From an uncultured bacterium (GTDB taxonomy: Bacteria; Chloroflexota; UBA5177; JANWHV01): 64,000 nucleotides of DNA. The DNA lies in the NCBI GenBank assembly GCA_963729625.1, contig CAVSOU010000011.1:512001-576000 (forward strand), given 5' to 3'. Below, piece after piece: positions 720 to 38,085 of this stretch. How positions within the stretch are numbered: position 1 is the stretch's first letter; each line of letters starts with the position of its first letter. The notes below the pieces were generated by a model. The model made no database searches. It was not told the origin of the DNA and was given only the letters and a program-made list of their open reading frames with translations. Made by a program: the position numbers and the translations under genes.

Positions 720-1100
720 CCCCGGTGATGGCGCAAATAACGTCACGCCTGCCGCTTGGGCGGCGGCGATAAGCCGTGTGTCGAGGGTGGCAAGCGGCAG
801 CTCCAGCCGCAGGGCAAGATCTGGGTAGGCCGCGTCGTAGGCTGAAAGCGCGTGCAGTCGGGCCACTTGAAGCGCGGTGAGCAGGAGATCCGCGAATGGG
901 CGTGGCTCGACGTCGATAGGCAGCGTCGCAAGGAGCTGTACGAATTGGTCGCACTGCGCCTTCGCCTCGTGCGATTGGAAAGGACAACCATGGCTACGCT
1001 CGTGTGCAGGGCCAGAAGCCCGAGTCGACGACCGCATGGGGCACCGGCAGACGGTGAAGCGAGGCCCTGGGGCGGTCTGTAAGCAGCGGCCGAGACGCTC
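720..1100 (-). pseudogene. vapC: 3' part of a VapC/PIN toxin gene, degenerate
   Basis: QFVQLLATLPIDVE...ALQVARLHALSAYDAAYPDLALRLELPLATLDTRLIAAAQAAGV is a PIN C-terminal half; the upstream part (SLHRLPVPHAVVDSGFWP) is frameshifted; no N-terminus here; boundaries approximate. Confidence 0.75.
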
Positions 1101-1103
1101 TGT

Positions 1104-1778
1104 TCAGCGAATCGTCAGGTGGTACGTGCCATGATAGGCACCCCAGGTGCCCCGGGCTCGCATTTCGATCGTATGCTGGCCCGGCGGCAGCGGAGCCAGC
1201 ATGACGTAGACGCCGATGCTCACCCCAAAGTCGGTTCCAGGCCCTCCAGGGATGCCGGCGATGTTCCCGGACGGATACGCAAAGGTGAAGCGGGGAGTCG
1301 TGAGCTGGTAGCGGGTAAACACGTTCGGAATTTGAATCCCATCCACCGCGAGCTCAGCCTCTTTGAAGCCGCGCCAGATGCCTTGGGCGTCGCTGCGCAA
1401 CTTCTCGAGGGTGTTGAAGGGGGCAGGGTGCGACACTTCGACGTTGGCCGGCGTGACGAGCACGGCCTTGCCGGCGGGCACCGTGCAGACCAAGGTGCCG
1501 GCGAAGGCCTGGACGAGGTACCAGACCGGGCCGGACTGGCCCTGGGCGCAGATAGCGGGGGTGACCTTGTTGGTCATGGGGCTCGTCGCCTTGGGTATGG
1601 CGTTCAACCACTGCTGCCACTGGACCGCCCATTCGACGTACGTGTGCCCGTAGGGACGCGCCTGGGGCGGGAAGATGTGAAGCGGTGCGCCTGCCGCGCG
1701 GGTGGTAGGCGCGGGTCCCAGGGCGAGGACTGCGAGCATGACGGCCGGCAATGCAACCAGCTTGCCGGTGATCTTCAT
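1104..1778 (-). CDS. secreted hypothetical protein (paralog A)
   Basis: RBS AAGGAG; signal peptide MKITGKLVALPAVMLAVLALGPAPTTRA; motifs PYG.TY.EW..QWQQW, C..GQSGPVWYL, CTVPAGKA, VMLAPLPPGQHTI. Confidence 0.85.
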   Translation of the reverse strand: MKITGKLVALPAVMLAVLALGPAPTTRAAGAPLHIFPPQARPYGHTYVEWAVQWQQWLNAIPKATSPMTNKVTPAICAQGQSGPVWYLVQAFAGTLVCTVPAGKAVLVTPANVEVSHPAPFNTLEKLRSDAQGIWRGFKEAELAVDGIQIPNVFTRYQLTTPRFTFAYPSGNIAGIPGGPGTDFGVSIGVYVMLAPLPPGQHTIEMRARGTWGAYHGTYHLTIR

Positions 1779-2039
1779 TGCCTTCTCCTTTTCCTTCCTG
1801 CGCCGTGTACAAGGTACCCGGCACTCGAGCATGCCGTCGTGGCCGGGTGCACCAGTTGCTCGATGCAGTCCAACGGTGGCCAGGCGTCAGCGGGAAGGAG
1901 CGGCAGTGCCGCGCGCGGAGCGTAGCGGCGTCGAACCCTTTCCAGGACGGCAGGTCAGCGCATCCACTCCGGTTCAATTCTATACCTCACGTCAAGGAAC
2001 GGCCGAACGTGACGTTTTCGGCCATCGGCGCTTGAGGGC

Positions 2040-2330
2040 CGAACCGCACCCGCCTCAGCACCGTGTGCTGTCCTGCTGCCAGCGGAGCCGGCATCACGAC
2101 TATACCGTCACCGACCGACTGGTGGTCCCAGGCCCAAACACGTTGAGGATGGCCTGGCGCCGTTATCCTGGTACGTGCGTGGAGTGCCCCGCCACCCAGA
2201 TCGTGATCGACTCGACGGCGCGAAAGCGGAGACGCTCGCAGACGGGTGGAGCGCCTCGGTGGCACCGAAGTAGAAGAGGCGCGCTCCAGACGCGGGGTGC
2301 TGGGCCACCACCCGACGCAGCAGCGCGCCG
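2040..2330 (-). pseudogene. decayed third paralog of the secreted protein family
   Basis: residual VGDGIVVMPAPLAAGQHTV matches AEGLFVMLAPLPAGQHTI of paralog B; upstream sequence heavily frameshifted or deleted; boundaries approximate. Confidence 0.6.
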
Positions 2331-2583
2331 CCAGCCCCGCGCCGTTGGGGGGGCGGCGGCCATACACCAGATCCCCACAGTGGTGCCACGCTGAGACGTG
2401 GCGATAGCACCGACCAACGTCTCCACGCGGTGAGCCAGGAAGATCGCGAGACCGAGGGCGTCGAGCACGGCCGGGCTCCACGCGCGCTGGGCGCATCCAC
2501 GGGAACGACTCGCCCCAGGGCCTCGCACCGGCAGGCGATGTTGCGAGGCCCTGAGGCGGTCGGCTGTGCCTGGGACGCTCTCC

Positions 2584-3312
2584 TCAGTTGCGAATCGTCA
2601 GAACGTACGTGGCACTCCACCAAGCACCCCCGGTCCTCGAGCCTTGCAGCTCGATGGTGTGCTGCCCCGCCGGCAACGGCGCCAGCATGACGAACAAGCC
2701 TTCAGCCATCGCCTTGGTAATCCCGGGTCCAGGCCCGTCAACGATATTGTCCGCAGGATACCTAACAATGAAGACAGGGGTCGTGAACCGGTAGCGGGTC
2801 AACACGTTCGCGACGTGAACCCCATCCACGGTAACGTCAGCTCCTGTCATCGTACTCATAGCCCCGTCGACGGCACTGCGCAATGCCTCGGGGGTGTCGC
2901 CGCACTGCGGTACCACGGCTGGGCAGAAGAAAGCCACCACCGAGAGGAGCAGCGCCTCGCCGGCCGGCACCGTGCAGGTCCGGACTACGGTGGGAGTCTG
3001 CCTGTCCCAGGCGATGAGGTACCAGACGGGGCCGGACTGGCGCTCGGTGCAGCGCGCCCCGGTGATGTCGTCCATGGGCGTCTTCGGCGCGGGTATCCCG
3101 TTGAACCATTGCTGGAACCGGACTTCCCATTCGGTGTACGAGAGGCCATATGGATGGGCCCAGGGCGGATACACGTAAGGCTGCGCGCTCCACGCCGGGG
3201 GTGGGTTGACACCGGGGTTGTCGTTCCCCGCCTGGACGACCCGCGCGGGTCCCAGGGCGAGGACGGTAAGTGTGACCATCAGCAACGCGAGCAGCTTCCT
3301 CATGTGTTTCAT
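2584..3312 (-). CDS. secreted hypothetical protein (paralog B)
   Basis: RBS AAGGAG; signal peptide MKHMRKLLALLMVTLTVLALGPARVVQA; same conserved motifs as 1104..1778. Confidence 0.85.
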   Translation of the reverse strand: MKHMRKLLALLMVTLTVLALGPARVVQAGNDNPGVNPPPAWSAQPYVYPPWAHPYGLSYTEWEVRFQQWFNGIPAPKTPMDDITGARCTERQSGPVWYLIAWDRQTPTVVRTCTVPAGEALLLSVVAFFCPAVVPQCGDTPEALRSAVDGAMSTMTGADVTVDGVHVANVLTRYRFTTPVFIVRYPADNIVDGPGPGITKAMAEGLFVMLAPLPAGQHTIELQGSRTGGAWWSATYVLTIRN

Positions 3313-3934
3313 GTCTCTCTCCTTGTGGCTCAACCCGAATGCGGACCGGCCCGGCCGGTTACTGCTTGGCTTGCCAGGGCATGTCGTAACTCATTCCCTC
3401 CTTTGCTACCCACCACGAGGTGCTCCAGTGCCGGGGGCGAGAAGTGCCGGTTTCAATGGCAGCCGCCGGCCGGTTCCATCTTCACTCTGCGCCTCACACG
3501 ACCCTGCCCGCCACACAGGCCGGCACATGAGAGTGCATCTGGACTCACATGATCCTGTGGGCATCCGGGCGCCCGGGCGCCGGCGCGTTGGACATACCAG
3601 AAGCGTGATCCGGTTCGGGGCTGGCGTGCCCTGGACCGCGGGCATCGTGCACGCCCCTGTCCGTCATGCCGACGAGACGGCCGCGGTCCTGCTCGGCCTG
3701 CGATCACATAATCCGGCTATGCCCCGCCGCAAAGGGCACGTCACGGCCATAGGCCCCGAAGAACTACAATGGGCGATCGCCTCTTGCGCCGGCTTGCCCG
3801 GAACGGTATGCTCGGAGCGGACGCGGATCCGGTGTAGCTCCTGCCCAGTTGGCGACGAGCGTCTGGCCCACAAGGTGTGAAGCGACAGGGACCGCCGCCG
3901 CCGGGCAGGCCAGGCACAGCCGCGTGGAGGTGCT

Positions 3935-5539
3935 ATGCAGCGCGGGGATCCTGGTCCCCCCTTCGCGGTGCTGCTGCGACGCTACCGGGAGGCTGCCGGC
4001 CTGACCCAGGAGGCACTGGCCGAGCGGGCAGGGGTGAGCGCGCGTGCCGTCAGCGACCTGGAGCGCGGGATCAATCGCGCGCCCCGCGTGGATACGCTCG
4101 GACTGCTGGCGAGGGCTCTCCAGCTCACGCCGGAGGACCGCGCCCGGTTGGAGGCGGCTGCCAGCGGGGTGGACGAATACGGCGTCGCCCTCACGGGCGC
4201 CGAAGGGCCAGGCACACCCACCACGTCCGATCAGGGGCGAGCGACGCGCACAGCGCGCACCCCGGTTGCCTTCCTCTCGTACGCGGCGGAGGACGGTGCG
4301 TTCGCGACACGGCTGCGGAGCGATCTGGCCACGCACGGTGTCACCGCCTGGGCCGACCGCGCCGAAGCGCGGACCGGATCCGGGCAGCCGGAGGCACTGC
4401 AGGCGGCCATACGCGCCTGCCCGGCGGTGCTGCTGGTGGTCTCTCCTGCTGCCCGCTCCTCGCACTGGGTCGGCAGGGAGCTGGGCCTGGCCGAGATGTA
4501 CGGCCGCCCGATCGTGCCCGTCTGGTCGGCCGGGGAGCAGTGGCTCGATTGCGCGCCGGCGGCGCTGGCCGGCGTGCCCTACGTGGACGCCCGTGGGTCC
4601 CGCTACTCCGAGGCGACCGTCGCGCTCGTGGCGGTGCTGGGCACGGTAGGCGCCGGCTCTGGCCGGGAGGACACGCCAAGCGCGACGCCGACACTGTTTG
4701 TGCCGCGCAACCCGTACAAAGGCCTGCGCGCGTTTGGTGAGGAGGACTCGGGCGACTTCTTCGGGCGGACCGCTTTCGTGCAAACGCTGGTGGAGGCGGC
4801 GGCGGCCACCCTCGCCCCGACACAAGCGGCGGCGCCCCGCCTGCTGGCCGTGGTGGGACCCAGCGGCTCGGGCAAGTCCAGCCTGGTGCGCGCCGGGCTC
4901 ATCCCGCGCCTCAAGGCGGGCGCTCTGCCTGGCAGCGACGGCTGGGTCTACCTCGATCCGGTCCTCCCCGGCGCCCGGCCCCTGGAGGCCCTGGCCGTGG
5001 CCCTGGCAGGCAAGCTCGACCGCAGCATCCATACTCTGTGCGAGGACCTCGGCGACGACGTCGCCCGTGGCCTGCACCTCTGGGCGCGGCAACTGGCGCC
5101 TCATCCCGACCAGCATGTGGTGCTGGTGATCGACCAGCTCGAGGAGCTGTTCACGCTCACCACGGATGAGGAGGAACGCCGGCAGTTCATCGACCTCCTG
5201 CTCACCGCGTTCGGTGAGCCGCGCGGCCCTCTGCTGGCCATCCTCACCCTGCGTGCCGACTTCTACGACCGGCCGATGGCCTATCCCGCGCTGGGCGCGG
5301 CGTTGGAGGCACGGAGCAGGTCGGTGCTGCCGCTGAGCGTGGCCGAGCTGCGGGAGGCCGTCGAGCGGCCCGCTGCCCTGCCCGACGTGCGGCTCGACTT
5401 CGAGCCCGACCTGGTGGGCGACCTGCTCTTTGAAGTGGCAGGGCAGGCGGGGGCGCTGCCGCTGCTGGAGTTCACCCTCGAGCAGCTCGCTGACCGCCGG
5501 CAGGGATTCGGAGTTGATCCGGTTCGGTGGAGGGATTGA
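3935..5539 (+). pseudogene. N-terminal part of an XRE-HTH/TIR/STAND NTPase protein, truncated by IS3 at about 5508
   Basis: LLRRYREAAGLTQEALAERAGVS (XRE HTH); AFLSYA...SHWVGRE (TIR_2); NPYKGLRAF...FFGR, Walker A GPSGSGKSS, Walker B VLVIDQLEE, TLRADF, GALPLLEF; RBS GGAGG. Confidence 0.9.
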
Positions 5540-5843
5540 GACTAGGTGGTTAGTCGCAAGGTACCTCCTTTCGTCGCGCGGAGAAAAGGCCGTGCTGGCA
5601 CGTCCGCGCTGCCTGTTTCGGTCGGAGGTGTGACCCTTCCGGCACCCCCTGCTGCGTCGTCGGTGCGGCGCGGGGGACGGTGATGGACGATCTGAACGCT
5701 GGCGCCCCGCGCCGCCCTCCAGCCTAGCAGGGGGGCCCGCCGGCGGGTCAACCCCGCTCCCTGCACGACGGCGCCGCTTTTGCCGGGCACGGGGAGGAGA
5801 CGGCGGCCGGTGGGTGCCGATGATGGGACGAGCAGGCAATGGT

Positions 5844-6713
5844 TCAGGCTGCGCATGCTGCCGCCTCTCGTTCGTAGGCTGCCGGACTCTGGTAGCCCAG
5901 GGCGGAATGCCGGCGATGGGTGTTGTAGAAGCCCTCGATAAAGTCAAAGACCGCCAGACGGGCGGCGGCCAGGCTGGGGAAGGTGTGGCGAGCCAGCAGC
6001 TCGGTTTCCAGGGTGGCGAAAAAGCTCTCGGTGATCGCGTTATCGTAACAATCCCCCACCGAACCCAAGGACGGCAGGACGCCGGCCAGTTGACAGCGCT
6101 CGCCGAAGGCCACGGACGTGTACTGGCAGCCGTGGTCGGAGTGATGGATGACCCCAGCGGCAGGGCGGCGGGTGGCGATGGCCATGTCCACGGCGTCCAG
6201 GACCAGCTCGGTGCGCAGATGATCGGCCATGGCCCAGCCAACAATCTTCCGGCTGAAGACATCGAGCACGACTGCCAGGTAGAGGAAGCCGTCCCAGGTC
6301 GGGATGGCGGTGATGTCGGCCGTCCAGAGGCGATTGGGTGCCCTGGCCACGAACTGCCGTTGCACCCGGTCGGGCACGGCTGTGGCCGTCGCCGCGCGCT
6401 CGGTGGTGACGACGAACCGTCGACGATGGCAGCCCACCAGTCCGGCACCCCGCAGCAACCGCGCCACGCGCCGGCGGCCGCAGTGTACCCCGGCCGCACG
6501 CAGCTCGGCATGGATGCGTGGTGCCCCATAGGTCCGCCGGCTCGCCTCGTGCGCCGTGCGGATGCGGACCAGCAGTGCTGCGTCCGCTTGCGCCCGGGCC
6601 GACGGTCCGCGCGTGCGCCATGCATAGTAGCCGCTAGGGGAGACACCCAGCACCCGGCAGAGCATGGCCACGGCATGAAAGGCCTTCTCGCACGCGATGA
6701 ACGCGAAGATCAT
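5844..6713 (-). CDS. IS3-family transposase OrfB (DDE/rve integrase core)
   Basis: LCRVLGVSPSGYY, TYGAPRI, W.ADIT, LDVFSRKIVGW, HHSDHGCQY, DNAITESFF..LETE. Confidence 0.95.
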   Translation of the reverse strand: MIFAFIACEKAFHAVAMLCRVLGVSPSGYYAWRTRGPSARAQADAALLVRIRTAHEASRRTYGAPRIHAELRAAGVHCGRRRVARLLRGAGLVGCHRRRFVVTTERAATATAVPDRVQRQFVARAPNRLWTADITAIPTWDGFLYLAVVLDVFSRKIVGWAMADHLRTELVLDAVDMAIATRRPAAGVIHHSDHGCQYTSVAFGERCQLAGVLPSLGSVGDCYDNAITESFFATLETELLARHTFPSLAAARLAVFDFIEGFYNTHRRHSALGYQSPAAYEREAAACAA

Positions 6714-7012
6714 CGCCGGGGTAGCCCCGTCTCCTGGGCGAAGAAGGCCGCGGCTTTTAGCAAGATTTCCCGCTCTTCCCGCAGGATGCGATTCTCCCGT
6801 CGCAGCTGGCGCATCTCCTCCGTCTCTTGCGTGGTCAGGCCGTCGGCACGACGGCCTTCATCAACATCGGCTTGCCGCACCCACAGACGCAGTGTCTCGG
6901 TTGAAACCTCCAGGCGGCGGGCGATCTCTGCCGCCGGCCTCCCGCTGCTCCGCACCAGCCGGATCGCCTCAGCGCGGAACTCGCGTGGATAGGGGGCATG
7001 ACTCTTTGGCAT
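6710..7012 (-). CDS. IS3-family transposase OrfA (HTH_Tnp_1)
   Basis: YPREFRAEAIRLV...EIARRLEVSTETLRLWV...LRRENRILREEREILLKAAAFFA; ATGA overlap with orfB; RBS AGGAGG. Confidence 0.95.
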   Translation of the reverse strand: MPKSHAPYPREFRAEAIRLVRSSGRPAAEIARRLEVSTETLRLWVRQADVDEGRRADGLTTQETEEMRQLRRENRILREEREILLKAAAFFAQETGLPRR

Positions 7013-7078
7013 GATGGAACCTCCTCTTCTTGTTCAGTACCAAGCGTTGAGGTCTCCACCAAGTCGGATCAGGTCCAA

Positions 7079-9907
7079 TCGACCCTGACCCAAGCCGCCT
7101 ACAGGGAGCTGGGCGGGGTCAGCGGCGCGCTGAGCCGGCAGGCCGAGGCGACCTACACCGCTCTTCCCACCGACGAGCATCGACGGCTGGCCCGCGCCCT
7201 CTTCCTGCGCCTGATCGACCCGGGCGCCACCGAGCAGGACACCACCCGCCGCCGGGCGGCAATGAGCGAATTGGCCCTGCCCGAGGAGCACGAGACCACC
7301 TTGATGCGTGAGGTCGCCGACGCCTTCGTGGCGGCGCGAATGCTGACGGCGAGCGAGCAGGGCGGCACCAGCCGGCTGGAGGTCAGCCACGAGGCACTCA
7401 TCCGCGAGTGGGCGCGCCTGGCTGGCTGGCTGCGCGAGGCGCGCGAGGACGTGCGCCTGCAGCAGAGCGTCAGCGCGGACGCAGCGACCTGGGCAGCGCG
7501 GGGCCGGCCGGCGGACCATTTGTACCGCGGCAGTGCGCTGGCCGAGGCACAGGGTTGGGCGGCGCGGAACACGCCGAGCGCCGAGGAGCAGGCCTTCATG
7601 GAAGCGGCGGCAAGAGAGGAGCGGGAGCAGGCGGCGGCGGAGCGGGAGCGGCAGGCGCGCGGGCTGGCCCTGGCACGCGTGGCAGCCACCCGGCTGCGCC
7701 TGCTGGCTGGCGTGCTGGCCCTCTTCCTGGCAGTCGCCGCGGGCCTGGGCGTGGTCGCTCGCAACAACGCCTCGGTGGCCTCGGATGAACGGGCACGTGC
7801 GGTGGCCGCCCGCGATGCGGCGGTCGCCGAGCTGGCGCGCGAGCTGGGTCTGCGGGCCGGCACGCTCCTGGACAGCGACCTGCGGGTCGCGTTGCTGCTG
7901 AGCGCGGAAGCCGATCGGCTGAGCAGCTCGGCGGAGACCCATGCCGACCTTATCCGCGCCATCGACTACCGTCCCCGGCTTCTGTCGTTTCTCACCGCGC
8001 AGGCTGGCCCCGTGCGGAGCGTCGCCTTCAGCCCAGGAGGAGCGATCCTGGCGGCAGGGAGCGACGACGGCACGATACGGCTGTGGGACGCGCGCAGCCG
8101 GCAGCCCCTCGGTCCGCCGCTCGCCGGCCATACCGAGTCGGTGAGCAGCCTAGCCTTCAGCCCGGATGGCACGGAGCTTGCCTCGGCGAGCAACGACGGC
8201 ACGGTGCGGCTGTGGGAGGTGGCCCGCCAAAGGCCCCTCGCGCCACCGCTGGCGACAGAGGGAGGCCCCGCGACCAGCGTGGCCTTCAGCCCCAATGGCA
8301 AGATCCTTGCCGCCGGCGACAGTGCCGGCTCGATCCGGCTCTGGGACGTCGCGGGCCGCCAGGCGCTCGCTCCCCTCCCGCAAGGGGGGCTCTGGTACGT
8401 GTATCACGTAGCCTTCAGCCCGGACGGCAGGATCCTGGCCGCCTGCGGCGAAGGCGGCACCATCGCGCTCTGGGACGTGGCGCGCCATATGCTCCTCCCG
8501 CCCTTGCGCGGCGGGCCCAGCTTCCTGGCGCAGAGCCTGGCCTTCAGCCCCGACGGCCGCACGCTGGCCGCCGGCAGCGAGACAGGCGCGATCCTGCGAT
8601 GGGATATGGCGAGCCGGCGGTTCTCCGGCCGGGTGCTCGCCGCGGGCTCCGGTCCGGTGTACGACATAGCCTTCAATCCCAATGGCACGGTGCTTGCCGC
8701 CGGCGGCCAGGACGGCATCATCCGGCTGTGGGACGCGGCGACCTGGCAACCACTCGATGCGTCCCTCACCGGCCATGCGGGTCCGGTGGACGGCCTCGCC
8801 TTCAGCCCCGACGGCCGGACGCTCGTGTCCGCCGGCGACGACGGCACGCTGCGCCTCTGGGACGCCACGGGCGCAGGCGTGCCCGGCCGGGTGCTGGCCG
8901 GCCACAGCGGTCAGGCCAATAGCCTGGCCTTCAGCCCGGACGGCACGACCCTGGCCTTGGGCAGCGCCGACGCGACCATCCGCCTGTGGAGCGTATCCAG
9001 CGGCCAGGCGCTCGGTCCACCGCTCGCCGGGCACGCCGGTGCCGTACTGAGCGTGGCCTTCGGTCTGGACGGCAAGAGCCTAGCCTCCACCAGCGCTGGT
9101 CCCGCCACCGGCAGCGCCACGTTCCGCCTGTGGAGCGTGCGGACCGGCCGGCCGCTCGGCCCGGCCCTCGCCGTGCGGGGTGCCGGCAGCGCCGCGTACA
9201 GTCCCGACGGCTCGGTCCTGGCTACGGGCAGCGCCGACGGCACGGTGCGGCTGTGGGATGTGGCGCGCCGCCGGCCCCTCGGCCCGGCGCTCTCCGGGCA
9301 TGGCGGCCGGGTGAATAGCTTGGCCTTCAGTCCCGACGGCCACACGCTGGCCTCCGGCGGCGCGGACGGGACCATTCGCCTGTGGCACGTGGCAACCCGG
9401 CAAGCGCTCGGTCCACCGCTCACGGGGTGCACCGGCCCGGTGTTGGACGTGGCGTTCAGCCCGGATGGCCGGATCCTGGCCTCGGGCAGCGCCGACTGCA
9501 CGATCCGGCTGTGGAATGTGCAGAGCCGGCTGCCGATCGGCCCGCCCCTCGGCCACGCCACCAGCCCGGTGTACAGCGTGGCCTTCAGTCCCGACGGCCA
9601 GTCCTTGGCCTCCGGCAACTCCGACGGCACGATCCAGCTGTGGGACGTGGCGAGCGGGCAGGCGCTTGGTCCGGCCCTCGCCGGGCATGGAGACAGAATC
9701 ATGAGCCTTGCCTTCAGTCCCGACGGCCGGCTGCTGGCCTCGGGCACTGCCGGGGTGTTCGGCGCGCCCCTCCGGCTGTGGTCCATCGGACCGCTGTCGC
9801 TGGCACAGCGTGCCTGTGCGATCGCCAATCGCAACCTGACCGCTCAGGAATGGAAGCAGTACCTCGGCGACCTGCCTTACCAGAGGACTTGCCCCAGCGT
9901 GCATTGA
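7079..9907 (+). pseudogene. C-terminal part of the STAND protein: helical region, TM segment and 14 WD40 repeats
   Basis: resumes STLTQAAYRELGGVSGAL...HEALIREW; hydrophobic LLAGVLALFLAVAAGLGVVA; 14 repeats of the AFSPDG..LA.GS.DGT.RLW type; C-terminal ACAIANRNLTAQEWKQY. Confidence 0.9.
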
Positions 9908-9950
9908 AGCACCACTGTGACATAACCCCGCCCGTGTCTAGCACGAGCAT
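9906..9950 (-). pseudogene. vapC: 5' fragment of a VapC/PIN toxin gene
   Basis: MLVLDTGGVMSQWCF resembles the PIN N-terminus (hhhDxSxxxxWCF); ATG overlaps the antitoxin stop (TGATG); similarity ends at the stop codon of the STAND gene. Confidence 0.65.
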
Positions 9951-10195
9951 CAGAAGCGGCGTCCCTCTCCACGCATAGCGCGAAGCTCCTGCTGATTAAC
10001 CGGTGCAACGCTCTGCCGAAGCGCCTTGATCTGCGCGATTGTCGATGCAAAGGAGGCCTCAGCACGTCTATGTGGGGGAACCATATGCGCTACCGGCACG
10101 CCATGACGCGTTATCTCGATCGTCTCGCCACGTGCCACCTCGTCAAGCAAGCGCGCAAGTTGCGTCTTCGCCTCGAATGCTCCAACCTGACGCAT
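9950..10195 (-). CDS. Phd/YefM-family antitoxin
   Basis: MRQVGAFEAKTQLARLLDEVARGETIEITRHGVPVA; RBS AGGAG. Confidence 0.92.
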   Translation of the reverse strand: MRQVGAFEAKTQLARLLDEVARGETIEITRHGVPVAHMVPPHRRAEASFASTIAQIKALRQSVAPVNQQELRAMRGEGRRF

Positions 10196-10473
10196 ACCAC
10201 TGCTCCTGTTTAGCTAGTCTCCATCTGGTTGATTATCTCGCATGCAGATTTCGTCGGCAGGACCCAGACCCACATCACGCACGCGCGTGGTTGAGCTCTG
10301 CTACACTCCGCGGGAAATACGCTCGTGCCACAGCTTCGTTCCACGGGTGGAATCGGCGGGAGATCCTGATCGCGACTTCGGCAAGCACGAGCATGCATGG
10401 CATCGTGGTCGGATTCCTGTACGATGACAGCAGGACGGCGTGCAGTGTGTCCGCCTCCTGAGGAGGGATACGT

Positions 10474-11946
10474 TTGAGCCCGCGCGTGCCGCCAACGGAT
10501 CTTGCCCGGATGAGTATTGTCGAGTTGCGTGCCGGGTACGCAACGCGCGCCTTCTCGCCGGTAGAGGCCGTCGCGCGCATGCTCGAGCGCATTGAGGCGG
10601 GCAACTCAGTCGTCAATGCTTTCACGACGCTTGCCGCTGAGAATGCCCTGGCGGAGGCGCGATCGCGCGATGACGAGCTGTCCCGTGGCTACACGCGCGG
10701 CCCTTTGCATGGCATCCCGTTCGCGGCAAAGGACCTGTTCGATTCCGCCGGACTGCGCACGACGTATGGATCGCGCTTATTCGCCGAGCACGTCCCTTCA
10801 GAAGACGCGACCGCTATCCGGCGGCTCAAGGACGCCGGCGCCATACTCCTCGGCAAAACGGCCACGCATGAGTTTGCCTGGGGGATCACCACCGTCAGCT
10901 CGTACTTCGGCCCCACGCGCAACCCCTGGCAGCTGAACGTCGTGGCGGGCGGGTCGAGCGGCGGCTCCGCGGTGGCACTGGCAACGGGCATGGCCCCCGC
11001 CGCCCTGGGCACCGACACTGGAGGATCGATTCGTATCCCGGCCGCCTTCTGTGGGGTGGTGGGGCTCAAGCCGACGCATGGACGCGTCAGCGCCGGCGGA
11101 GTCTTTCCGCTGGCGCCGTCGCTGGACCATCCGGGCCCTATGGCGCGGACCGTCGAGGATGTCGCGCTCCTCTTGCAGGTGCTCGCCGGATATGAGCGCG
11201 GCGATCCCTCAACCGCCGCCGTGGCCGTACCACAATACTCCGACGCGCTTCACGCAGGGATCACGTCGTTGCGCGTGGGGATCTGCCCGGACCTGCACCC
11301 CGTAGCGCTTAGCGCGGCGGCGCGGCGCGCGCTGGACAAGAGCACCAGCACGCTCGTCAGTCTGGGCGCGGCCCTCGTCGAAGTTTCGCTTCCCTCGGCG
11401 ACGCTGATCGGCGACGCGTACCGCGCCATTCAGCAGGCGGAAGCCTATCATGTTCACCATCATCAGCGCCGGCTTTACCCTGCTCAAGAATCGCTGTATG
11501 GTCGTGACGTTGCTGCGCATCTCGAACAGGCATCCGAAGTCTCCCTCGCCGAGTACCTCGAGGCCCTGCACGTTCGGCGCCGGTTGCGCGCAGACTTCGC
11601 GCGACTTTTCGACGAAGAGATCGATCTGCTGATTAGCCCAGTCAACGCCGGCTCACCTGTGGCCATCGGCGATGAGACCGTACAGCACGAGAATCAGAGC
11701 ATATCATTCAGGAGCCTGGTGCTGCCGTATACCGTGCCCCAGGACGTGGCGGGACTGCCCGCGTGCGCGATTCGCGCGGGCTTCGATGGCAGCGGAATCC
11801 CTGTCGGCATACAGCTTACGGGGCCGCCCTGGAGCGAGGCGCTCGTCCTGCGCGCTGCCCACGCGCTATTCTCCGCCACGCCCGACGTTCAGCAGCGGTG
11901 GCCTCCGCTCACCGACGACGTTACCCCGGCTGCCGGTTCCCGCTAG
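10474..11946 (+). CDS. amidase (amidase signature family, GatA-like)
   Basis: GPLHGIPFAAKDLF, GKTATHEF, GGSSGGSA, GTDTGGSIRIPA; RBS AGGAGG with TTG start. Confidence 0.93.
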   Translation: MSPRVPPTDLARMSIVELRAGYATRAFSPVEAVARMLERIEAGNSVVNAFTTLAAENALAEARSRDDELSRGYTRGPLHGIPFAAKDLFDSAGLRTTYGSRLFAEHVPSEDATAIRRLKDAGAILLGKTATHEFAWGITTVSSYFGPTRNPWQLNVVAGGSSGGSAVALATGMAPAALGTDTGGSIRIPAAFCGVVGLKPTHGRVSAGGVFPLAPSLDHPGPMARTVEDVALLLQVLAGYERGDPSTAAVAVPQYSDALHAGITSLRVGICPDLHPVALSAAARRALDKSTSTLVSLGAALVEVSLPSATLIGDAYRAIQQAEAYHVHHHQRRLYPAQESLYGRDVAAHLEQASEVSLAEYLEALHVRRRLRADFARLFDEEIDLLISPVNAGSPVAIGDETVQHENQSISFRSLVLPYTVPQDVAGLPACAIRAGFDGSGIPVGIQLTGPPWSEALVLRAAHALFSATPDVQQRWPPLTDDVTPAAGSR

Positions 11947-32709: not shown

Positions 32710-32787
32710 CATTTCCAGCTGATTCGAGCGCAAGAGTGGGCGCCGCGGCGCTGAACGCGATGCGCGATACGAATACAAGTTCTTGCG

Positions 32788-35700
32788 ATGGAGTCCACAA
32801 TGCAGCGCTCGAGCCGTAGCCTTCCATTTAGCCGTGCCCTTGCCGTAGCCGCGATAGTAGCGGCCCCGCTCTTGACGACGGCGGGCGATTGGCCGACCTA
32901 TCTGCATGACGCGAGCCGCAGTGCGGCCAGTCTGGGCGAGACGACGCTCTCGACGGCCAACGCCGGCCAGCTGGTCGAACACTGGGCGTACAAGACCGGG
33001 GGCATGATCGCGGCGTCGCCGACGGTGGTGGGCAACACGGTGTACGTGGGCGCCTGGGACGGCTACGAGTACGCGCTGAACGCCACGACCGGCGCCCTGG
33101 AGTGGAAGACCTTCCTGGGCATCACGGGACCGTACGCCACCTGCAATCCGCCATCGGCAGGGGTCACCTCGGGCGCGGCGGTGGTGAATGGGGTAGTGTA
33201 CGTGGGCGGCGGCGACCACACCGGTGGCACGAACACCTCCTTCTATGCGCTCGACGCCGGCAGCGGCGCCATCCTGTGGACGGTGAATACGGGGGATGGC
33301 AGCGCCGCGGGCGGGCACTACGACTGGGCCTCGCCGCTGATTGTCGGCAACTACGCCTACGTGGGCATTGCCAGCTTCGGCGATTGCCCGCTGGTGCAGG
33401 GCCAGTTGCTGAAAGTGGACCTCACGGCGCACACCGTCGTGGCCACGGCGAACCTGGTGTCGAACGGTGAGCTGGGCGCTGGGGTGTGGACGTCGCCCAC
33501 CTACGACGCGGCCACCAACACGGTCTACGTGACCACCGGCACGAAGTTCGCCACGGACCAGACGATGTCGCAGGCGGTGGTGGCGCTGGCGGGGACGGAC
33601 CTGACGATCGAGAGTGCCTGGCAGATCCCGGAGGACCAGGCGCTGAGCGACGCGGACTTTGGCACCACGCCGATCCTGGTGACCGACAGTGGCGGGCACC
33701 GGCTGGTGGTGGCGATGAACAAGAACGGCTATCTGTACGCCTTCAGCCAGCCGGCCAGCGCGACCACGGCCATCGACCTGGCGGCGGGACCGACGTGGGA
33801 GGAACAGCTGGACCCGGGCGGGTCCAACCCGTCGGCGGGGGACGGCACGGTGTCCAGCGCCGCCTTCGCCAACGGCACGCTGTACCAGGCGAGCGGCAAT
33901 ATCGTGGTGAACGGGGTGGGCTACGGCGGCGCGGTGAGCGCGATCAATCCGGCGAACGGGGCCATCGCATGGCAGCACCCGACCGCCTACCCCATCGTGC
34001 CGGCCATTGCCTACGGCAACGGGTTCATCGTGGACGGGGAGGGGCCGACGGTGGAGGTGCTCGACGCCGGCACCGGCACCCGACTGTACAGCTACACGAC
34101 CGGGGCGCCGCTCTACGGGCCGCCGGTGGTGGCCAACGGGCAGATCGTGATCGGCGGCACCGACCACAGCGTCTACGCGTTCGGGCTGCCGGCCAGCACG
34201 CCCCCGACCCCGCCCGCGGATGGGAACTGCCCGAGCGGCTGGACCTGCCAGGACGTCGGCTCGCCGGCGCCGGCGGGCTCGGAGTCGGTGGTGAGCGGCG
34301 CCTGGACCGTGCTCGCGGGCGGCGGCGGTCTGGCCGGCGCTGCGGATGCCTTCCGATTGCTGACCGAACCGGCTACCGGTGACGCGCAGGTCACGGCCAG
34401 GATACCCGCGCTGCCCACCGGCACGAGCAACGCCCTGGCCGGTCTGATCGTGCGACAGAGCAACGACCCCGCAGCACCGTACTACGCGGCATTCATGGCG
34501 GCGTCGGGCACGCTCGTCGTGCAGTATCGCGCCACGCCCGGGGCGGCTCCGGCCATAGTGACCCAGCAGGCCCGATCGGCGCCGGTCTATCTCGAGATAC
34601 AGCGGGTAGGCGACCACTTCTCCGCCGCGACGTCCACCGACGGCTCCAGCTATGCGCTGGTGCCGGGTACGACCGTTACGGCAGCCATGCCGGCCACGGT
34701 GCTGGCGGGGCTGGCCGCCGGAGCCGGATTGGGCGCGAACGGCGCCGCTGCCACCGCCACGTTCAGCCAGGTGGTCGTCGGTCCCCGCACGAACGCGCCC
34801 GCTGCCGCGTCCGGGGGCACCTGCCCGAGCGGCTGGACCTGCGGCGATATCGGCAATCCGTCGCAGGTCGGCACCCAGTCACTCAGCGCGGGAACCTGGA
34901 CGGTGCAGGGCGGCGGTACCTATATTGCCAACCAGTCCGACCAGTTTCACTCTGTCTGGCAAAGCCTGAACGGCGACGGCACGATGGTCGCGCGGGTAGC
35001 CAGTCAGTCAAACACGGACCCCAACGCGGAAGCGGGCATCATGTTCCGCCAGAGCACGGCGGCCGACTCGCCGATGTACGGGCTGCTGGTGACCCCGGGG
35101 AATGGGGTGGTGGCGCTCTACCGCTCGAACGGCTCGTTCAACACGCTGGGGCTGGCGTCGCCTTCCGGCACGGCGCCCGTGTACCTGAAGGTGACCCGCG
35201 TGGGCGCCGTCTTCACCGCGTACACCTCAAGCGATGGCAGTACCTGGACCGCGCTGGGGACCAGCCAGCAGATCGCGCGCTTCCCCAGCACCCTGCTGGT
35301 CGGGCTGGCCGTCAGCGCGCACAATACCGGTACCCTGGGCAGCGCGCAGTTCAGCAACGTGTCCATTACCCCGACCACCCCCCTGTTCTGCCCAGCGGGC
35401 TGGACGTGCGCGGACCTGGGCGGTCCTAACACGCAGGGCAGCGACGCGGCCAGCGGCAGCACCTGGACGGTGCAGGGCGGCGGCGGCGACATCTGGGGAG
35501 CCAGCGACCAGTTCCACTTCGACTGGCAGACCCTGCCGGCCGGGGACGGCAGCGTGAGCGCCAAGGTGGTGGCGCAGTCCAACTCGAACGGTTGGGCCAA
35601 GGCGGGTCTGATGGTCCGCAGTGCAAACACCGCGTACGCGGCGTTCTACGCTGTCCTGGTGACCCCGAGCAACGGCATCGTCGTGCAGTACCGGGGCTAC

Positions 35701-38085
35701 ACCGGCGAAGGGGCAAATGCCGTGCAGGCGGCGTCCAGCACCGGCACCGTGCCGACCTACTTGAAGGTAGCCAGGGCGGGAACCACGTATAGTGCGTACA
35801 CCGCGAGCGATGGGGTCACCTGGACGCTGCTACCCGGCTCCAGCATCACCTTGCCCGCATTTGCCGGGCCACTCCTGGCCGGCGTCGCGGTCACCGCCCA
35901 TACCGCGACCGGACTGAGCACGGTGACCTTCACCGCGGTAACTGTCGCGAGCGGCGGCGCGCCTCCACCAACGGCGACAGCCACGGTGACAAGTACGAGC
36001 GTCCCCGGAGCCACCGCTACGAGCACGCCGGTGAGCGCGAGCGGCTGCCCCGCGGGGTGGCTCTGCACGGACATCGGAGCGCCGACCGTACCCGGCTCCG
36101 AGTCGGTAGCCAACGGCACCTGGACGGTCGTCGGGGGCGGCGGCGATATCTGGGGCACCGGAGACCAGTTCCGCTTCGACTACCAACCATTGACCGGCGA
36201 CGGCAGCGTCAGCGCCCGCGTCGTGACCCAGACCGAGAGCGACCCCTGGGCCAAGGCCGGCGTCATGCTGCGCGGCAACACCGGTCCGGGTGCCGCGTTC
36301 TACGACGCTCTGGTCACGCCCGCTAACGGCATCACTATCCAGTATCGCTCGCCACAGGGCGTCGCCGCGGCCGTGCTGGCCTCGCTGGCCGGCACCGTGC
36401 CCGTATACCTGCAGGTGACGCGCACCGGCACCTCGTTCAGCGCCTATACTTCCAGCAATGGAACTACGTGGTCCCTCGTTCCAGGCTCGACCGTCACGCT
36501 GACCGGCCTCACCGGCTCGCTGCTGGCCGGCCTCGCAGTGACCGCCCACAACCTGAGCGGCTCCAGTACCGTGACCTTCACCGCGGTGAGCGTAGCAGCG
36601 GGAAGCACGCCCACGCCCACCGCACCACTCACCGCTACGTCTACGCCGCTACCGGCGACACAGACGGCGACAGCCACGGTGACAAGTACGAGCGTCCCCG
36701 GAGCCACCGCTACGAGCACGCCGGTGAGCGCGAGCGGCTGCCCCGCGGGGTGGCTCTGCACGGACATCGGAGCGCCGACCGTACCCGGCTCCGAGTCGGT
36801 AGCCAACGGCACCTGGACGGTCGTCGGGGGCGGCGGCGATATCTGGGGCACCGGAGACCAGTTCCGCTTCGACTACCAACCATTGACCGGCGACGGCAGC
36901 GTCAGCGCCCGCGTCGTGACCCAGACCGAGAGCGACCCCTGGGCCAAGGCCGGCGTCATGCTGCGCGGCAACACCGGTCCGGGTGCCGCGTTCTACGACG
37001 CTCTGGTCACGCCCGCTAACGGCATCACTATCCAGTATCGCTCGCCACAGGGCGTCGCCGCGGCCGTGCTGGCCTCGCTGGCCGGCACCGTGCCCGTATA
37101 CCTGCAGGTGACGCGCACCGGCACCTCGTTCAGCGCCTATACTTCCAGCAATGGAACTACGTGGTCCCTCGTTCCAGGCTCGACCGTCATGCTGACCGGC
37201 CTCACCGGCTCGCTGCTCGCCGGCCTCGCAGTGACCGCCCACAGCCTGAGCGGCTCCAGTACCGTGACCTTCACCGCGGTGAGCGTAGCAGCGGGAAGCA
37301 CGCCCACGCCCACCGCACCACTCACCGCTACGTCTACGCCGCTACCGGCGACACAGACGGCGACGGCAACCGCCACCCAGACTGCGACGCCCACGAGCAC
37401 GCAGACGGCAGTGGCCACCAGCACATCGTCAGCGACGGCCACGAACACACATGTGCCGACCACAACGGCTGTTCCGACGAGCACAAGCGCACCCACAGCA
37501 ACGAACACCAGCACGCCGGTGGCCGTGGCCGGCTGCCCCGCGGGGTGGCTCTGCACGGACATCGGAGCGCCGACCGTACCCGGCTCCGAGTCGGTAGCCA
37601 ACGGCACCTGGACGGTCGTCGGGGGCGGCGGCGATATCTGGGGCACCGGAGACCAGTTCCGCTTCGACTACCAACCATTGACCGGCGACGGCAGCGTCAG
37701 CGCCCGCGTCGTGACCCAGACCGAGAGCGACCCCTGGGCCAAGGCCGGCGTCATGCTGCGCGGCAACACCGGTCCGGGTGCCGCGTTCTACGACGCTCTG
37801 GTCACGCCCGCTAACGGCATCACTATCCAGTATCGCTCGCCACAGGGCGTCGCCGCGGCCGTGCTGGCCTCGCTGGCCGGCACCGTGCCCGTATACCTGC
37901 AGGTGACGCGCACCGGCACCTCGTTCAGCGCCTATACTTCCAGCAATGGAACTACGTGGTCCCTCGTTCCAGGCTCGACCGTCACGCTGACCGGCCTCAC
38001 CGGCTCGCTGCTGGCCGGCCTCGCAGTGACCGCCCACAACCTGAGCGGCTCCAGTACCGTGACCTTCACCGCCGTACTTGCCTGA
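32788..38085 (+). CDS. large secreted protein: PQQ-type beta-propeller plus six ConA-like (DUF1349-like) domains and Thr/Pro linkers
   Basis: signal peptide; DWPTYLHD, ASPTVVGNTVYVGAWDGYEYAL, DADFGTTP; six CPxGWxCxDxG...KAGxMxR...GLAVTAH modules. Confidence 0.88.
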   Translation: MESTMQRSSRSLPFSRALAVAAIVAAPLLTTAGDWPTYLHDASRSAASLGETTLSTANAGQLVEHWAYKTGGMIAASPTVVGNTVYVGAWDGYEYALNATTGALEWKTFLGITGPYATCNPPSAGVTSGAAVVNGVVYVGGGDHTGGTNTSFYALDAGSGAILWTVNTGDGSAAGGHYDWASPLIVGNYAYVGIASFGDCPLVQGQLLKVDLTAHTVVATANLVSNGELGAGVWTSPTYDAATNTVYVTTGTKFATDQTMSQAVVALAGTDLTIESAWQIPEDQALSDADFGTTPILVTDSGGHRLVVAMNKNGYLYAFSQPASATTAIDLAAGPTWEEQLDPGGSNPSAGDGTVSSAAFANGTLYQASGNIVVNGVGYGGAVSAINPANGAIAWQHPTAYPIVPAIAYGNGFIVDGEGPTVEVLDAGTGTRLYSYTTGAPLYGPPVVANGQIVIGGTDHSVYAFGLPASTPPTPPADGNCPSGWTCQDVGSPAPAGSESVVSGAWTVLAGGGGLAGAADAFRLLTEPATGDAQVTARIPALPTGTSNALAGLIVRQSNDPAAPYYAAFMAASGTLVVQYRATPGAAPAIVTQQARSAPVYLEIQRVGDHFSAATSTDGSSYALVPGTTVTAAMPATVLAGLAAGAGLGANGAAATATFSQVVVGPRTNAPAAASGGTCPSGWTCGDIGNPSQVGTQSLSAGTWTVQGGGTYIANQSDQFHSVWQSLNGDGTMVARVASQSNTDPNAEAGIMFRQSTAADSPMYGLLVTPGNGVVALYRSNGSFNTLGLASPSGTAPVYLKVTRVGAVFTAYTSSDGSTWTALGTSQQIARFPSTLLVGLAVSAHNTGTLGSAQFSNVSITPTTPLFCPAGWTCADLGGPNTQGSDAASGSTWTVQGGGGDIWGASDQFHFDWQTLPAGDGSVSAKVVAQSNSNGWAKAGLMVRSANTAYAAFYAVLVTPSNGIVVQYRGYTGEGANAVQAASSTGTVPTYLKVARAGTTYSAYTASDGVTWTLLPGSSITLPAFAGPLLAGVAVTAHTATGLSTVTFTAVTVASGGAPPPTATATVTSTSVPGATATSTPVSASGCPAGWLCTDIGAPTVPGSESVANGTWTVVGGGGDIWGTGDQFRFDYQPLTGDGSVSARVVTQTESDPWAKAGVMLRGNTGPGAAFYDALVTPANGITIQYRSPQGVAAAVLASLAGTVPVYLQVTRTGTSFSAYTSSNGTTWSLVPGSTVTLTGLTGSLLAGLAVTAHNLSGSSTVTFTAVSVAAGSTPTPTAPLTATSTPLPATQTATATVTSTSVPGATATSTPVSASGCPAGWLCTDIGAPTVPGSESVANGTWTVVGGGGDIWGTGDQFRFDYQPLTGDGSVSARVVTQTESDPWAKAGVMLRGNTGPGAAFYDALVTPANGITIQYRSPQGVAAAVLASLAGTVPVYLQVTRTGTSFSAYTSSNGTTWSLVPGSTVMLTGLTGSLLAGLAVTAHSLSGSSTVTFTAVSVAAGSTPTPTAPLTATSTPLPATQTATATATQTATPTSTQTAVATSTSSATATNTHVPTTTAVPTSTSAPTATNTSTPVAVAGCPAGWLCTDIGAPTVPGSESVANGTWTVVGGGGDIWGTGDQFRFDYQPLTGDGSVSARVVTQTESDPWAKAGVMLRGNTGPGAAFYDALVTPANGITIQYRSPQGVAAAVLASLAGTVPVYLQVTRTGTSFSAYTSSNGTTWSLVPGSTVTLTGLTGSLLAGLAVTAHNLSGSSTVTFTAVLA
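35971..38073 (+). repeat. near-identical intragenic domain triplication (693-bp unit at 35971 and 36664; third copy 37531-38073)
   Basis: copies identical at DNA level apart from three substitutions I could find in the middle copy. Confidence 0.93.

Follow-up and report, generated by a model that had tools for sequence, protein, structure and literature searches.

The window analysed here is a 64,000-nucleotide stretch of high-GC DNA (GenBank assembly GCA_963729625.1, contig CAVSOU010000011.1, positions 512,001 to 576,000) from an uncultured Chloroflexota bacterium, and its positions 1104 to 9907 hold an interrupted receptor gene of the STAND NTPase class next to two genes, secA and secB, for exported proteins. 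The names of database relatives likewise point to Chloroflexota. The receptor belongs to a known group, the NLR-like STAND NTPases of the nSTAND1 clade that carry a TIR effector. We are highly confident of the identities of the parts (domains, insertion sequence and neighbouring genes); that together they represent a single-pass membrane STAND receptor, dead in this copy, beside a lineage-expanded family of exported immunoglobulin (Ig)-like proteins is a picture to which we give about an even chance of being right. The assembly that holds the window comprises 5.4 Mb in 21 contigs and is 87% complete with 5% contamination. This genome is referred to as G000 and a sister genome of the same genus as G004; contigs and fetched loci carry the prefixes C and L, and P0071 (1479 aa) is the best intact receptor relative.

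The receptor gene is read as two open reading frames (ORFs), 3935-5539 (534 aa) and 6998-9907 (969 aa), which share phase and are the halves of one gene of ~1466 codons. Their two nSTAND1 (PF20703) half-matches abut at profile position 242: residues 260-524 of the first ORF match profile positions 1-242 of 379 (E 1.2e-68, 233 bits), and residues 27-172 of the second match positions 242-378 (E 8.3e-36, 124.9 bits; cut-off 27.1). Both pieces also align end-to-end with P0071, residues 1-524 of the first with its residues 1-525 and residues 30-968 of the second with 528-1478. A preliminary description of this DNA had proposed that removal of an insertion sequence gives one protein of about 1466 aa, and these two results bear it out. 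The order of the rejoined protein is an XRE helix-turn-helix (HTH), a TIR_2 domain, the nSTAND1 NTPase, one strongly hydrophobic helix and 14 WD40 repeats, and its features are as follows:

3935..5506, + strand: receptor 5' part, codons 1-524 (Pfam; alignment to P0071)
3962-4150, + strand: XRE HTH (Pfam)
4271-4612, + strand: TIR_2 domain, with Glu182 in the motif WVGRE (Pfam)
4712-5506, + strand: P-loop part of nSTAND1 (Pfam)
7085..9907, + strand: receptor 3' part (Pfam; P0071 alignment from Leu30)
up to 7513, + strand: remaining nSTAND1 (Pfam)
7700-7756, + strand: predicted membrane helix (hydropathy, flank charges)
within 7085..9907, + strand: helical linker between the membrane helix and the WD40 repeats
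7988-9784, + strand: 14 WD40 repeats (repeat parsing)
9785-9904, + strand: C-terminal tail with two Cys

The HTH is matched by HTH_3 (PF01381) at residues 14-67 of the first ORF (E 1.3e-15, 57.6 bits, cut-off 23) and by HTH_31 (PF13560; 57 bits, cut-off 27), the two together spanning residues 10-72, and TIR_2 (PF13676) matches residues 113-226 (E 2.7e-18, 67.1 bits, cut-off 28). Within the TIR domain, residues 178-182 (WVGRE) fall on WVHKE in an alignment with the SARM1 TIR domain (E 1.5e-4), and the Glu at this position we take to be the catalytic one. The tandem of an XRE HTH and a TIR_2 domain that keeps the WVGRE Glu, as first described, is thus recovered by matches above the Pfam cut-offs. 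In an alignment of 25 receptor sequences (the window copy and 24 database relatives), the TIR Glu is present in 22, and Lys314 of the Walker A motif GSGKS and Asp400, Glu403 and Glu404 of the Walker B motif DQLEE are each found in 25 of 25, window copy included. The second ORF matches WD40 at E 3e-132 (Pfam), and fourteen units of 34-48 aa were parsed at its residues 331-929, ten of them exactly 43 aa long, with a mean mutual identity of 47%; they probably fold as two seven-bladed propellers. The STAND NTPase, the hydrophobic segment, single in each protein, and the 14 repeats therefore all stand as the preliminary description had them. The C-terminal tail contains RACAIANRNLTAQEWKQYLGDLPYQRTCP, and C940 and C965 of the second ORF are invariant or nearly so in relatives. 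A disulfide between these two Cys would fit an extracytoplasmic site, which is speculative.

On which side of the membrane would the WD40 domain lie? The hydrophobic segment, LLAGVLALFLAVAAGLGVV (second ORF, residues 235-253), averages 2.64 on the Kyte-Doolittle scale over its 19 residues, and there is only one segment of such strength per receptor protein. All full-length paralogues of the own genome that keep the region have a counterpart (2.45-2.99) between NTPase and repeats, and a Frankia homologue carries one at the same position. Across the aligned sequences, the hydropathy of the segment is 2.1-3.1 in 25 of 25, the 15-residue N-terminal flank is Arg-rich with a net charge of +2 to +5, the C-terminal flank ranges from -1 to +3, and the positive charges on the N side equal or exceed those on the C side in 24 of 25. 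Many residues of the segment vary between the sequences without loss of hydrophobicity, the pattern expected for a membrane helix. Together with the N-side positive bias, this is consistent with a single-pass protein oriented N-in, C-out, with the WD40 domain predicted outside and the HTH, TIR and NTPase domains in the cytoplasm. The segment therefore behaves like the transmembrane helix that the preliminary description took it for.

The gene is split by an IS3-family insertion sequence (IS):

5510-7076, - strand: IS3-family insertion sequence (inverted repeats, Pfam, NCBIfam)
5844-6713, - strand: IS orfB (Pfam rve; NCBIfam transpos_IS3)
6710-7012, - strand: IS orfA (Pfam HTH_Tnp_1)

The NCBIfam model transpos_IS3 matched orfB with 337.3 bits (cut-off 160) and orfA with 52 bits. 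The break separates codon 524 from the Leu30 codon of the downstream ORF. Imperfect 23-nt inverted repeats are found at 5510-5532 and 7054-7076 (18/23 complementary, 78%), the left end at 5510 being set by an identical ~309-nt copy elsewhere in the genome, and no clean target-site duplication of 3-5 bp was found at the flanks GGGATTC and AATCGAC. That copy of the left ~309 nt (window 5510-5818) stands alone inside another gene at G000:C16:5220-5518 (L003), with 100% identity over the 299 nt compared, and a related IS copy on C8 is 83% identical and lacks the first 84 nt. The left end itself may be a mobile or composite piece. Because both pieces of the receptor gene align end-to-end with the intact P0071, the IS is the only lesion found in it. 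The 969-aa ORF begins inside the IS, and any product would be without the HTH, TIR and P-loop; the window copy is a dead pseudogene, and intact paralogues exist, among them P0072 at G000:C11:370082-374557.

The receptor belongs to a large family, with 3528 database clusters at E<=1e-20 among the 8000 candidates examined. Among the matches listed, 34 of 120 cover at least 96% of the 534-aa query and hence include the HTH. Other relatives begin at the TIR domain, and their C-terminal domains differ (trypsin-like, beta-helix, FGE-sulfatase, kinase, GAF). In the own genome, 14 nSTAND1 matches above the cut-off fall at about ten loci, with an HTH+TIR head in the window and at C17, C11:372k, C9 and C10:43k, TIR only at C10:984k and C8:695k, and HTH only at C14. 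Judged by domain order, the receptor HTH occupies the slot where related proteins carry effectors, and HTH domains are listed among the effector modules of related conflict systems in the passages found of PMC7159879. Furthermore, 26 ORFs of at least 500 aa in G000 match the N-terminal part of an HTH-TIR-nSTAND1 profile built from six own-genome paralogues, and those checked are XRE-HTH-AAA_16/NB-ARC-TPR or XRE-HTH-nSTAND1-WD40 proteins; 26 such ORFs would be a large expansion of HTH-headed STAND proteins in this genome.

Upstream of the receptor gene, on the opposite strand, lie the genes of the exported proteins:

1104..1778, - strand: secA, 224-aa signal-peptide protein, start MKITGK (ORF; family hidden Markov model (HMM) score 275 over profile 3-230; ribosome-binding site)
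2584..3312, - strand: secB, 242-aa signal-peptide protein, paralogue of secA (ORF; family HMM score 295)
2005..2127, - strand: remnant of a third secreted-family gene, C-terminal ~40 residues (family HMM positions 185-225, score 30)

The starts were corrected to 1778 rather than 1832 for secA and to 3312 rather than 3333 for secB (likely). The two proteins are 47% identical and have signal-peptide-like N-termini, and their family has two nearly invariant Cys and conserved motifs that include GPVWYL and CTVPAGK, in agreement with their first description as paralogous secreted Cys-containing proteins. Neither matched a Pfam, NCBIfam or PADLOC family. Relatives of secB are rare: a search of 5.8 billion clusters gave just 70 proteins at E<=1e-3, and no Pfam domain was found in any of them. 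Its AlphaFold2 model (pLDDT 88.1, pTM 0.78) consists of an N-terminal helix, a short helical part and an Ig/FN3-like sandwich. The best Foldseek match of this model is a chagasin-type inhibitor with an E of 9.7e-5, yet the template modelling (TM) scores are 0.25/0.45 and the root-mean-square deviation is 8.5, and in VIA-align chagasin/ICP (Z 5.8) is level with many unrelated Ig/FN3 domains (best Z 6.5). Matches in the ESM Atlas are unnamed or 'lipoprotein family' clusters. By signal peptide and predicted fold, secA and secB are exported Ig-like proteins, and the evidence reaches no further.

In front of secA, ~50 nt upstream, lies a riboswitch-like leader:

1822..1984, - strand: structured 5' leader of secA, resembling the cyclic di-GMP (c-di-GMP)-II clan (Rfam match 1832-1974; own model R1)

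Its full-model match to RF01786 scores 30.2 bits (E 0.001-0.0035; gathering score 53.5), and RF03169 gives 25.1 bits (gathering score 40). Against R1, a model built here from the copies, it scores 143 bits and is the most diverged copy of a 153-nt element that, at eight further places in the fetched loci, stands before genes or gene arrays of the secreted family:

L081: 10965-11137
L173: 5733-5905
L174: 6761-6934, 10811-10983 and 18569-18741
L175: 2430-2602 and 5226-5398
L214: 883-1055

These eight copies score 31-39 bits against RF03169 or RF03170 (gathering scores 40 and 47.9), and the range for sister copies at a gathering score of 40 is 29.8-39 bits, again in full-model alignments. The nine copies are 92% identical and the proteins downstream ~50%; each copy has a TATAAT-like box before it and a ~71-nt insertion in a hairpin loop. 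The order comprises five genomes only, all of one genus, and the secreted family is present in G000 and G004 only; the R1 search returned 11 copies in G000, 19 in G004 and 3, 1 and 1 in the genus genomes without the family. In 19 copies, 14 of 49 base pairs change on both sides, compared with 4.3 +/- 1.6 in shuffles; none of 500 shuffles reached 14, and slid partners gave 3-8.

The G000 genes downstream of the leader mostly start with signal-peptide-like or membrane segments; among them are members of the secreted family, a BAAT-like hydrolase and a beta-propeller protein that has the family N-terminus. The last is a 421-aa protein at G000:C21:22561-23826 (-) (L208), with the secreted-family signal peptide and first ~45 residues, which continues as a YncE/lactonase-type beta-propeller and has a 153-nt leader in front. 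Two compact 86-nt aptamers in the same genome, G000:C11:917912-917997 (+) and G000:C17:322086-322171 (+), exceed the RF03169 gathering score with 46.3 and 45.8 bits; a U-rich stretch resembling a terminator comes after each, and the genes downstream encode a membrane protein of 480 aa and a secreted protein of 968 aa. G000 also has 20 GGDEF matches. The consensus lines of the Rfam variants differ at one trinucleotide, which is GCA, GAG or GCG; in the long copies it is GAA in 16 of 19 (the motif was not found in 2 of 19), and in the window copy and both compact copies it is GCA. Four of the 11 G000 elements (window, C17, C9 and C8) lie at most 4 kb from an XRE-HTH-STAND ORF. We regard the leader as marking a candidate small regulon of exported proteins in the genus and as a candidate for variant ligand specificity.

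The preliminary description had also placed the receptor divergent from the secreted genes. This holds for secB and fails for secA, which has a leader of its own. The shared region is the following:

3313..3934, no strand: divergent secB/receptor intergenic region, 622 bp (comparison of paralogous and orthologous intergenic regions)

Read by eye, it contains a short conserved secB-type leader and promoter-like boxes. Genes of the secB type, those directly divergent from receptor genes, share this short conserved leader and are in this respect unlike the secA type. The secB-type leader (window ~3330-3420 (-), with equivalents in L082 and L173) has a strong Shine-Dalgarno-like box, after which come a very short ORF, of 11 codons in the window and 5 codons in L082, and a GC hairpin; it could be a leader peptide or another regulatory RNA. 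The region is ~150 bp longer than its G004 orthologue, and the extra DNA (window ~3560-3710) includes TGATCCGGTTCGG, identical to the IS terminal repeat; it is possibly a scar of an IS or of a miniature inverted-repeat transposable element. A scan of 900-10500 returned no sigma-70 consensus promoter, and its terminator-like sites were at chance level.

Are the two families linked? In G000, four of the six loci with real secreted-family genes adjoin an nSTAND1 gene, three divergently at ~0.3-0.6 kb and one convergently:

Window: divergent, 622 bp apart
C11:372k: divergent, ~0.3 kb apart
C11:752k: divergent; receptor gene broken
C17: convergent, ~1.1 kb apart

The unlinked loci, C7 and a broken copy at C11:205k, lie among unrelated genes. 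In G004, the divergent pair at C10:1048-1052k is the apparent orthologue of the window locus, a broken secreted-family copy on C12 lies ~60 bp past the end of a receptor gene (convergent), and a secreted-family fragment is divergent from another receptor gene. Independent placement would give an estimated ~3% per locus against the four of six seen, a contrast that paralogy inflates, as paralogous loci within the genus are non-independent samples and recurrence there overstates linkage. Recent block duplication as the sole cause of the linkage was considered and rejected: identity among the secreted paralogues is only ~50%, and their tree is not arranged by locus.

From these observations a mechanism can be proposed for the intact paralogues. 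The HTH, TIR and NTPase domains would lie in the cytoplasm and the WD40 blades would face outward. Binding of a ligand outside would drive NTP-dependent oligomerisation inside, which would gather the TIR domains, for NAD+ cleavage or signal production, together with the HTH domains. At the divergent promoter region that the receptor gene shares with its secB-type neighbour, the HTH domains would regulate both of these genes, and the secreted genes would be co-regulated neighbours, some of them under a cyclic-dinucleotide-type riboswitch. Most likely, the secreted proteins are such co-regulated neighbours, located where large Chloroflexota genomes are variable. A role as obligate partners or as ligands is improbable, and direct contact between WD40 domain and secreted protein we rate as much less than an even chance.

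A number of observations weigh against this picture. There is no working receptor at this locus, the window copy being a pseudogene. Membrane insertion, predicted here from sequence, is beyond proof by hydropathy alone, and no such membrane helix is mentioned in the passages found of the STAND/WD40 literature (PMC10907252, PMC8195603, PMC7159879, PMC13581612). The 153-nt leader scores below the Rfam gathering scores (25-39 versus 40-53.5 bits), no shared palindromic operator was seen in six intergenic regions, and the orientation varies between divergent and convergent, which a simple shared-promoter model does not explain. The pairing with the secreted family is lineage-specific, not like a conserved two-gene system. 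Outside the genus, an nSTAND1 gene lies within 10 kb of the secreted family at only 1 of 43 genome loci (Frankia) and at none of 80 metagenome loci, of which only 22 reach at least 6 kb, and of 26 genomes with receptor relatives, in a census of 401 sampled genomes of the phylum, 23 are without the secreted family. The linkage of the secreted family to STAND genes that the preliminary description proposed is thus seen inside the genus, at the four G000 loci and several in G004, and is largely missing outside it; absence of linkage, seen here in part, was one of the findings that the description had named as speaking against its own proposal.

The HTH-TIR-nSTAND1 profile matched at 3 of the 43 genome loci outside the genus (Frankia, L041 and L048) and at 1 of the 80 metagenome loci, where a TIR-like ORF lies 6 kb away; at the Frankia locus a phage-type integrase gene separates the nSTAND1 gene from the secreted gene. 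A Pfam survey of long ORFs (66 of 130 ORFs of at least 600 aa scanned, loci L038-L068 only) found other STAND-type regulators occasionally within 10 kb and none both adjacent and divergent. In the census, the secreted family was found in 9 of 401 genomes, seven of them outside the genus with one copy each, and among those seven loci large XRE-HTH ORFs are nearby at L205 only. Close relatives of the receptor N-terminal part were found in the 26 genomes given above. Both families occur in 3 of the 32 genomes holding either (G000, G004 and G396), and in G396 they are on different contigs. Because the linkage mostly vanishes outside the genus and only three genomes hold both, the secreted family and the receptor are not obligate partners. 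What does recur, in a few large Chloroflexota genomes, is the placement of secreted-family genes beside XRE-HTH-STAND genes of more than one class.

Could the receptor instead be a cytoplasmic anti-phage sensor of the Avs or bNACHT type? The WD40 domain would then recognise a phage protein in the cytoplasm and the TIR domain would deplete NAD+ and so abort the infection, the hydrophobic helix would be buried or a membrane tether with the WD40 domain not exported, the role of the HTH would be confined to autoregulation, and the secreted genes would lie nearby by chance. This is unlikely, although it survives best among the alternatives. TIR-STAND proteins and STANDs with WD40 sensors are defence-associated in the passages found of PMC13581612 and PMC10907252, and the secreted family is unlinked in most other lineages. 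PADLOC-DB 2.0 gave domain-level matches of at most 32 bits, to a ThsB-type TIR and a capH-type HTH, and the WD40 repeats matched its HEAT-ARM_XIII model; however, none of its system models matches the receptor over most of its length, and it has no match for the NTPase or the secreted proteins. The remaining 54 kb of the window is housekeeping and sugar metabolism (amidase, sugar catabolism, ATP-binding cassette transport, kinases and similar), not a defence island. Moreover, a 19-residue segment of such hydropathy with an Arg-rich N flank, conserved in every aligned sequence, is hard to place in a soluble protein, and adjacency at four of six loci, even if inflated by paralogy, is far above the expectation for chance neighbours. 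Elsewhere in the window, at 32755-38082 (+), a 1776-aa ORF with PQQ/BamB-like beta-propeller and DUF1349 matches is unrelated to the receptor locus.

A second alternative, which we hold to be slightly less likely, is that the receptor is a STAND transcription factor in the style of MalT, AfsR or GutR that mainly activates the neighbouring secreted genes, with the TIR domain solely an oligomerisation scaffold. Proteins with the architecture XRE-HTH-NB-ARC/AAA_16-TPR and without a membrane helix are also found divergent from secreted genes: on C16 of G004, a secreted-family gene is divergent from such a protein of 831 aa, and at L041, in a Chloroflexia metagenome-assembled genome, an XRE-HTH and TPR gene is directly divergent from a secreted-family gene. 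At L048, the secreted-family gene is the last of an operon, and 3.6 kb from it an HTH-AAA_16-TPR gene is transcribed divergently from that operon. The HTH-only nSTAND1 paralogue on C14 also favours regulation, and STAND transcription regulators are already known (references named in the passages found of PMC13581612). On the other hand, the conservation of the TIR Glu in most relatives argues for catalysis, and receptor relatives are far more widespread than the secreted family. The promoter-like box and riboswitch-like leader of secA mean that it need not be an output of the HTH, and the convergent arrangements (C17; C12 of G004) do not fit a shared promoter.

The remaining alternative, cell-cell or kin recognition in which an outward WD40 domain would bind polymorphic secreted Ig-like proteins from adjacent filaments and the TIR domain would kill on mismatch, by analogy with fungal HET-E/HET-C incompatibility, is highly improbable: a predicted outward WD40 domain does lie beside an exported, fast-diverging multigene family (secA and secB are on the longest branches, 1.07 and 0.82 versus a median of 0.36) whose paralogues are shuffled between the loci of G000 and G004, but binding between the two is hypothetical, the WD40 units, with a mutual identity of 47%, lack the high repetitiveness that goes with recent homogenisation, no membrane helix is present in the TPR-type proteins paired with the secreted family, and the two families rarely co-occur.

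We return to the membrane receptor with co-regulated secreted neighbours and compare it with known systems. The nSTAND1 clade of prokaryotic conflict systems is named in the passages found of Kaur et al. 2021 (PMC8195603), and the receptor resembles its STANDs in the full NTPase profile, intact Walker A and B motifs, N-terminal TIR, C-terminal repeat sensor, and occurrence as a large family in filamentous large-genome bacteria; it differs in the extra XRE HTH before the TIR domain, the conserved membrane helix between NTPase and WD40 domain, and the IS-disrupted copy. With Avs/bNACHT proteins and Apaf-1-like WD40 sensors it shares the succession of effector, STAND switch and repeat sensor, and WD40 beta-propeller sensors are reported in defence-associated STAND clades in the passages found of PMC13581612. 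Those proteins, however, are described as sensing phage proteins in the cytoplasm, whereas the sensor of the receptor is predicted to lie outside the membrane, and the receptor has neither a PADLOC system match nor a defence-island context.

MalT, GutR and AfsR likewise combine a DNA-binding domain with a STAND ATPase and a repeat sensor, and in AfsR the DNA-binding domain is also N-terminal. These proteins have a LuxR or SARP HTH and TPR repeats, in contrast to the XRE and TIR domains, membrane helix and WD40 repeats of the receptor. The membrane-bound one-component regulators ToxR/CadC and the receptor kinase PknD of M. tuberculosis have a cytoplasmic output, one membrane helix and an extracytoplasmic sensor, which in PknD is a beta-propeller; neither has a STAND NTPase switch or a TIR domain. 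The leader resembles the c-di-GMP-II clan (Rfam CL00127: RF01786, RF03169 c-di-GMP-II-GAG and RF03170 c-di-GMP-II-GCG) in its full-model match and in the conserved core GGA.GC..UGAcc ... GAGC.A.UGG.G...CCG.CC, and differs in its ~71-nt loop insertion, its sub-gathering scores and its mostly GAA trinucleotide. Neither the pairing of an HTH-TIR-nSTAND1 protein with this secreted family nor the long leader is described in the literature passages found, those of PMC5587647 included. Absent from these passages are the membrane helix, the double head of HTH plus TIR, and the genus-level pairing with an exported family that is part of a riboswitch-like regulon.

A wider reading, to which we give little credence, would join these elements. 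The nSTAND1-WD40 proteins of Chloroflexota and Actinomycetota would form a transmembrane NLR-like class, with HTH, TIR and NTPase domains in the cytoplasm and a double WD40 propeller outside, that couples an outside cue to NAD+-derived signalling and to transcription of neighbouring genes for exported proteins; the long GAA leader before those genes would sense a nucleotide other than c-di-GMP, possibly the TIR product, closing a loop from receptor to riboswitch.

Bacterial NLR-like STAND proteins are treated as cytoplasmic sensors. If the membrane reading is true, the conserved helix would put the sensor outside the cell in a family of thousands of members. The cues that such proteins can detect would change accordingly, to neighbours, matrix or phage at the surface. 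The natural module swaps among the paralogues (HTH+TIR, TIR only, HTH only) are well suited to testing the outputs of this family.

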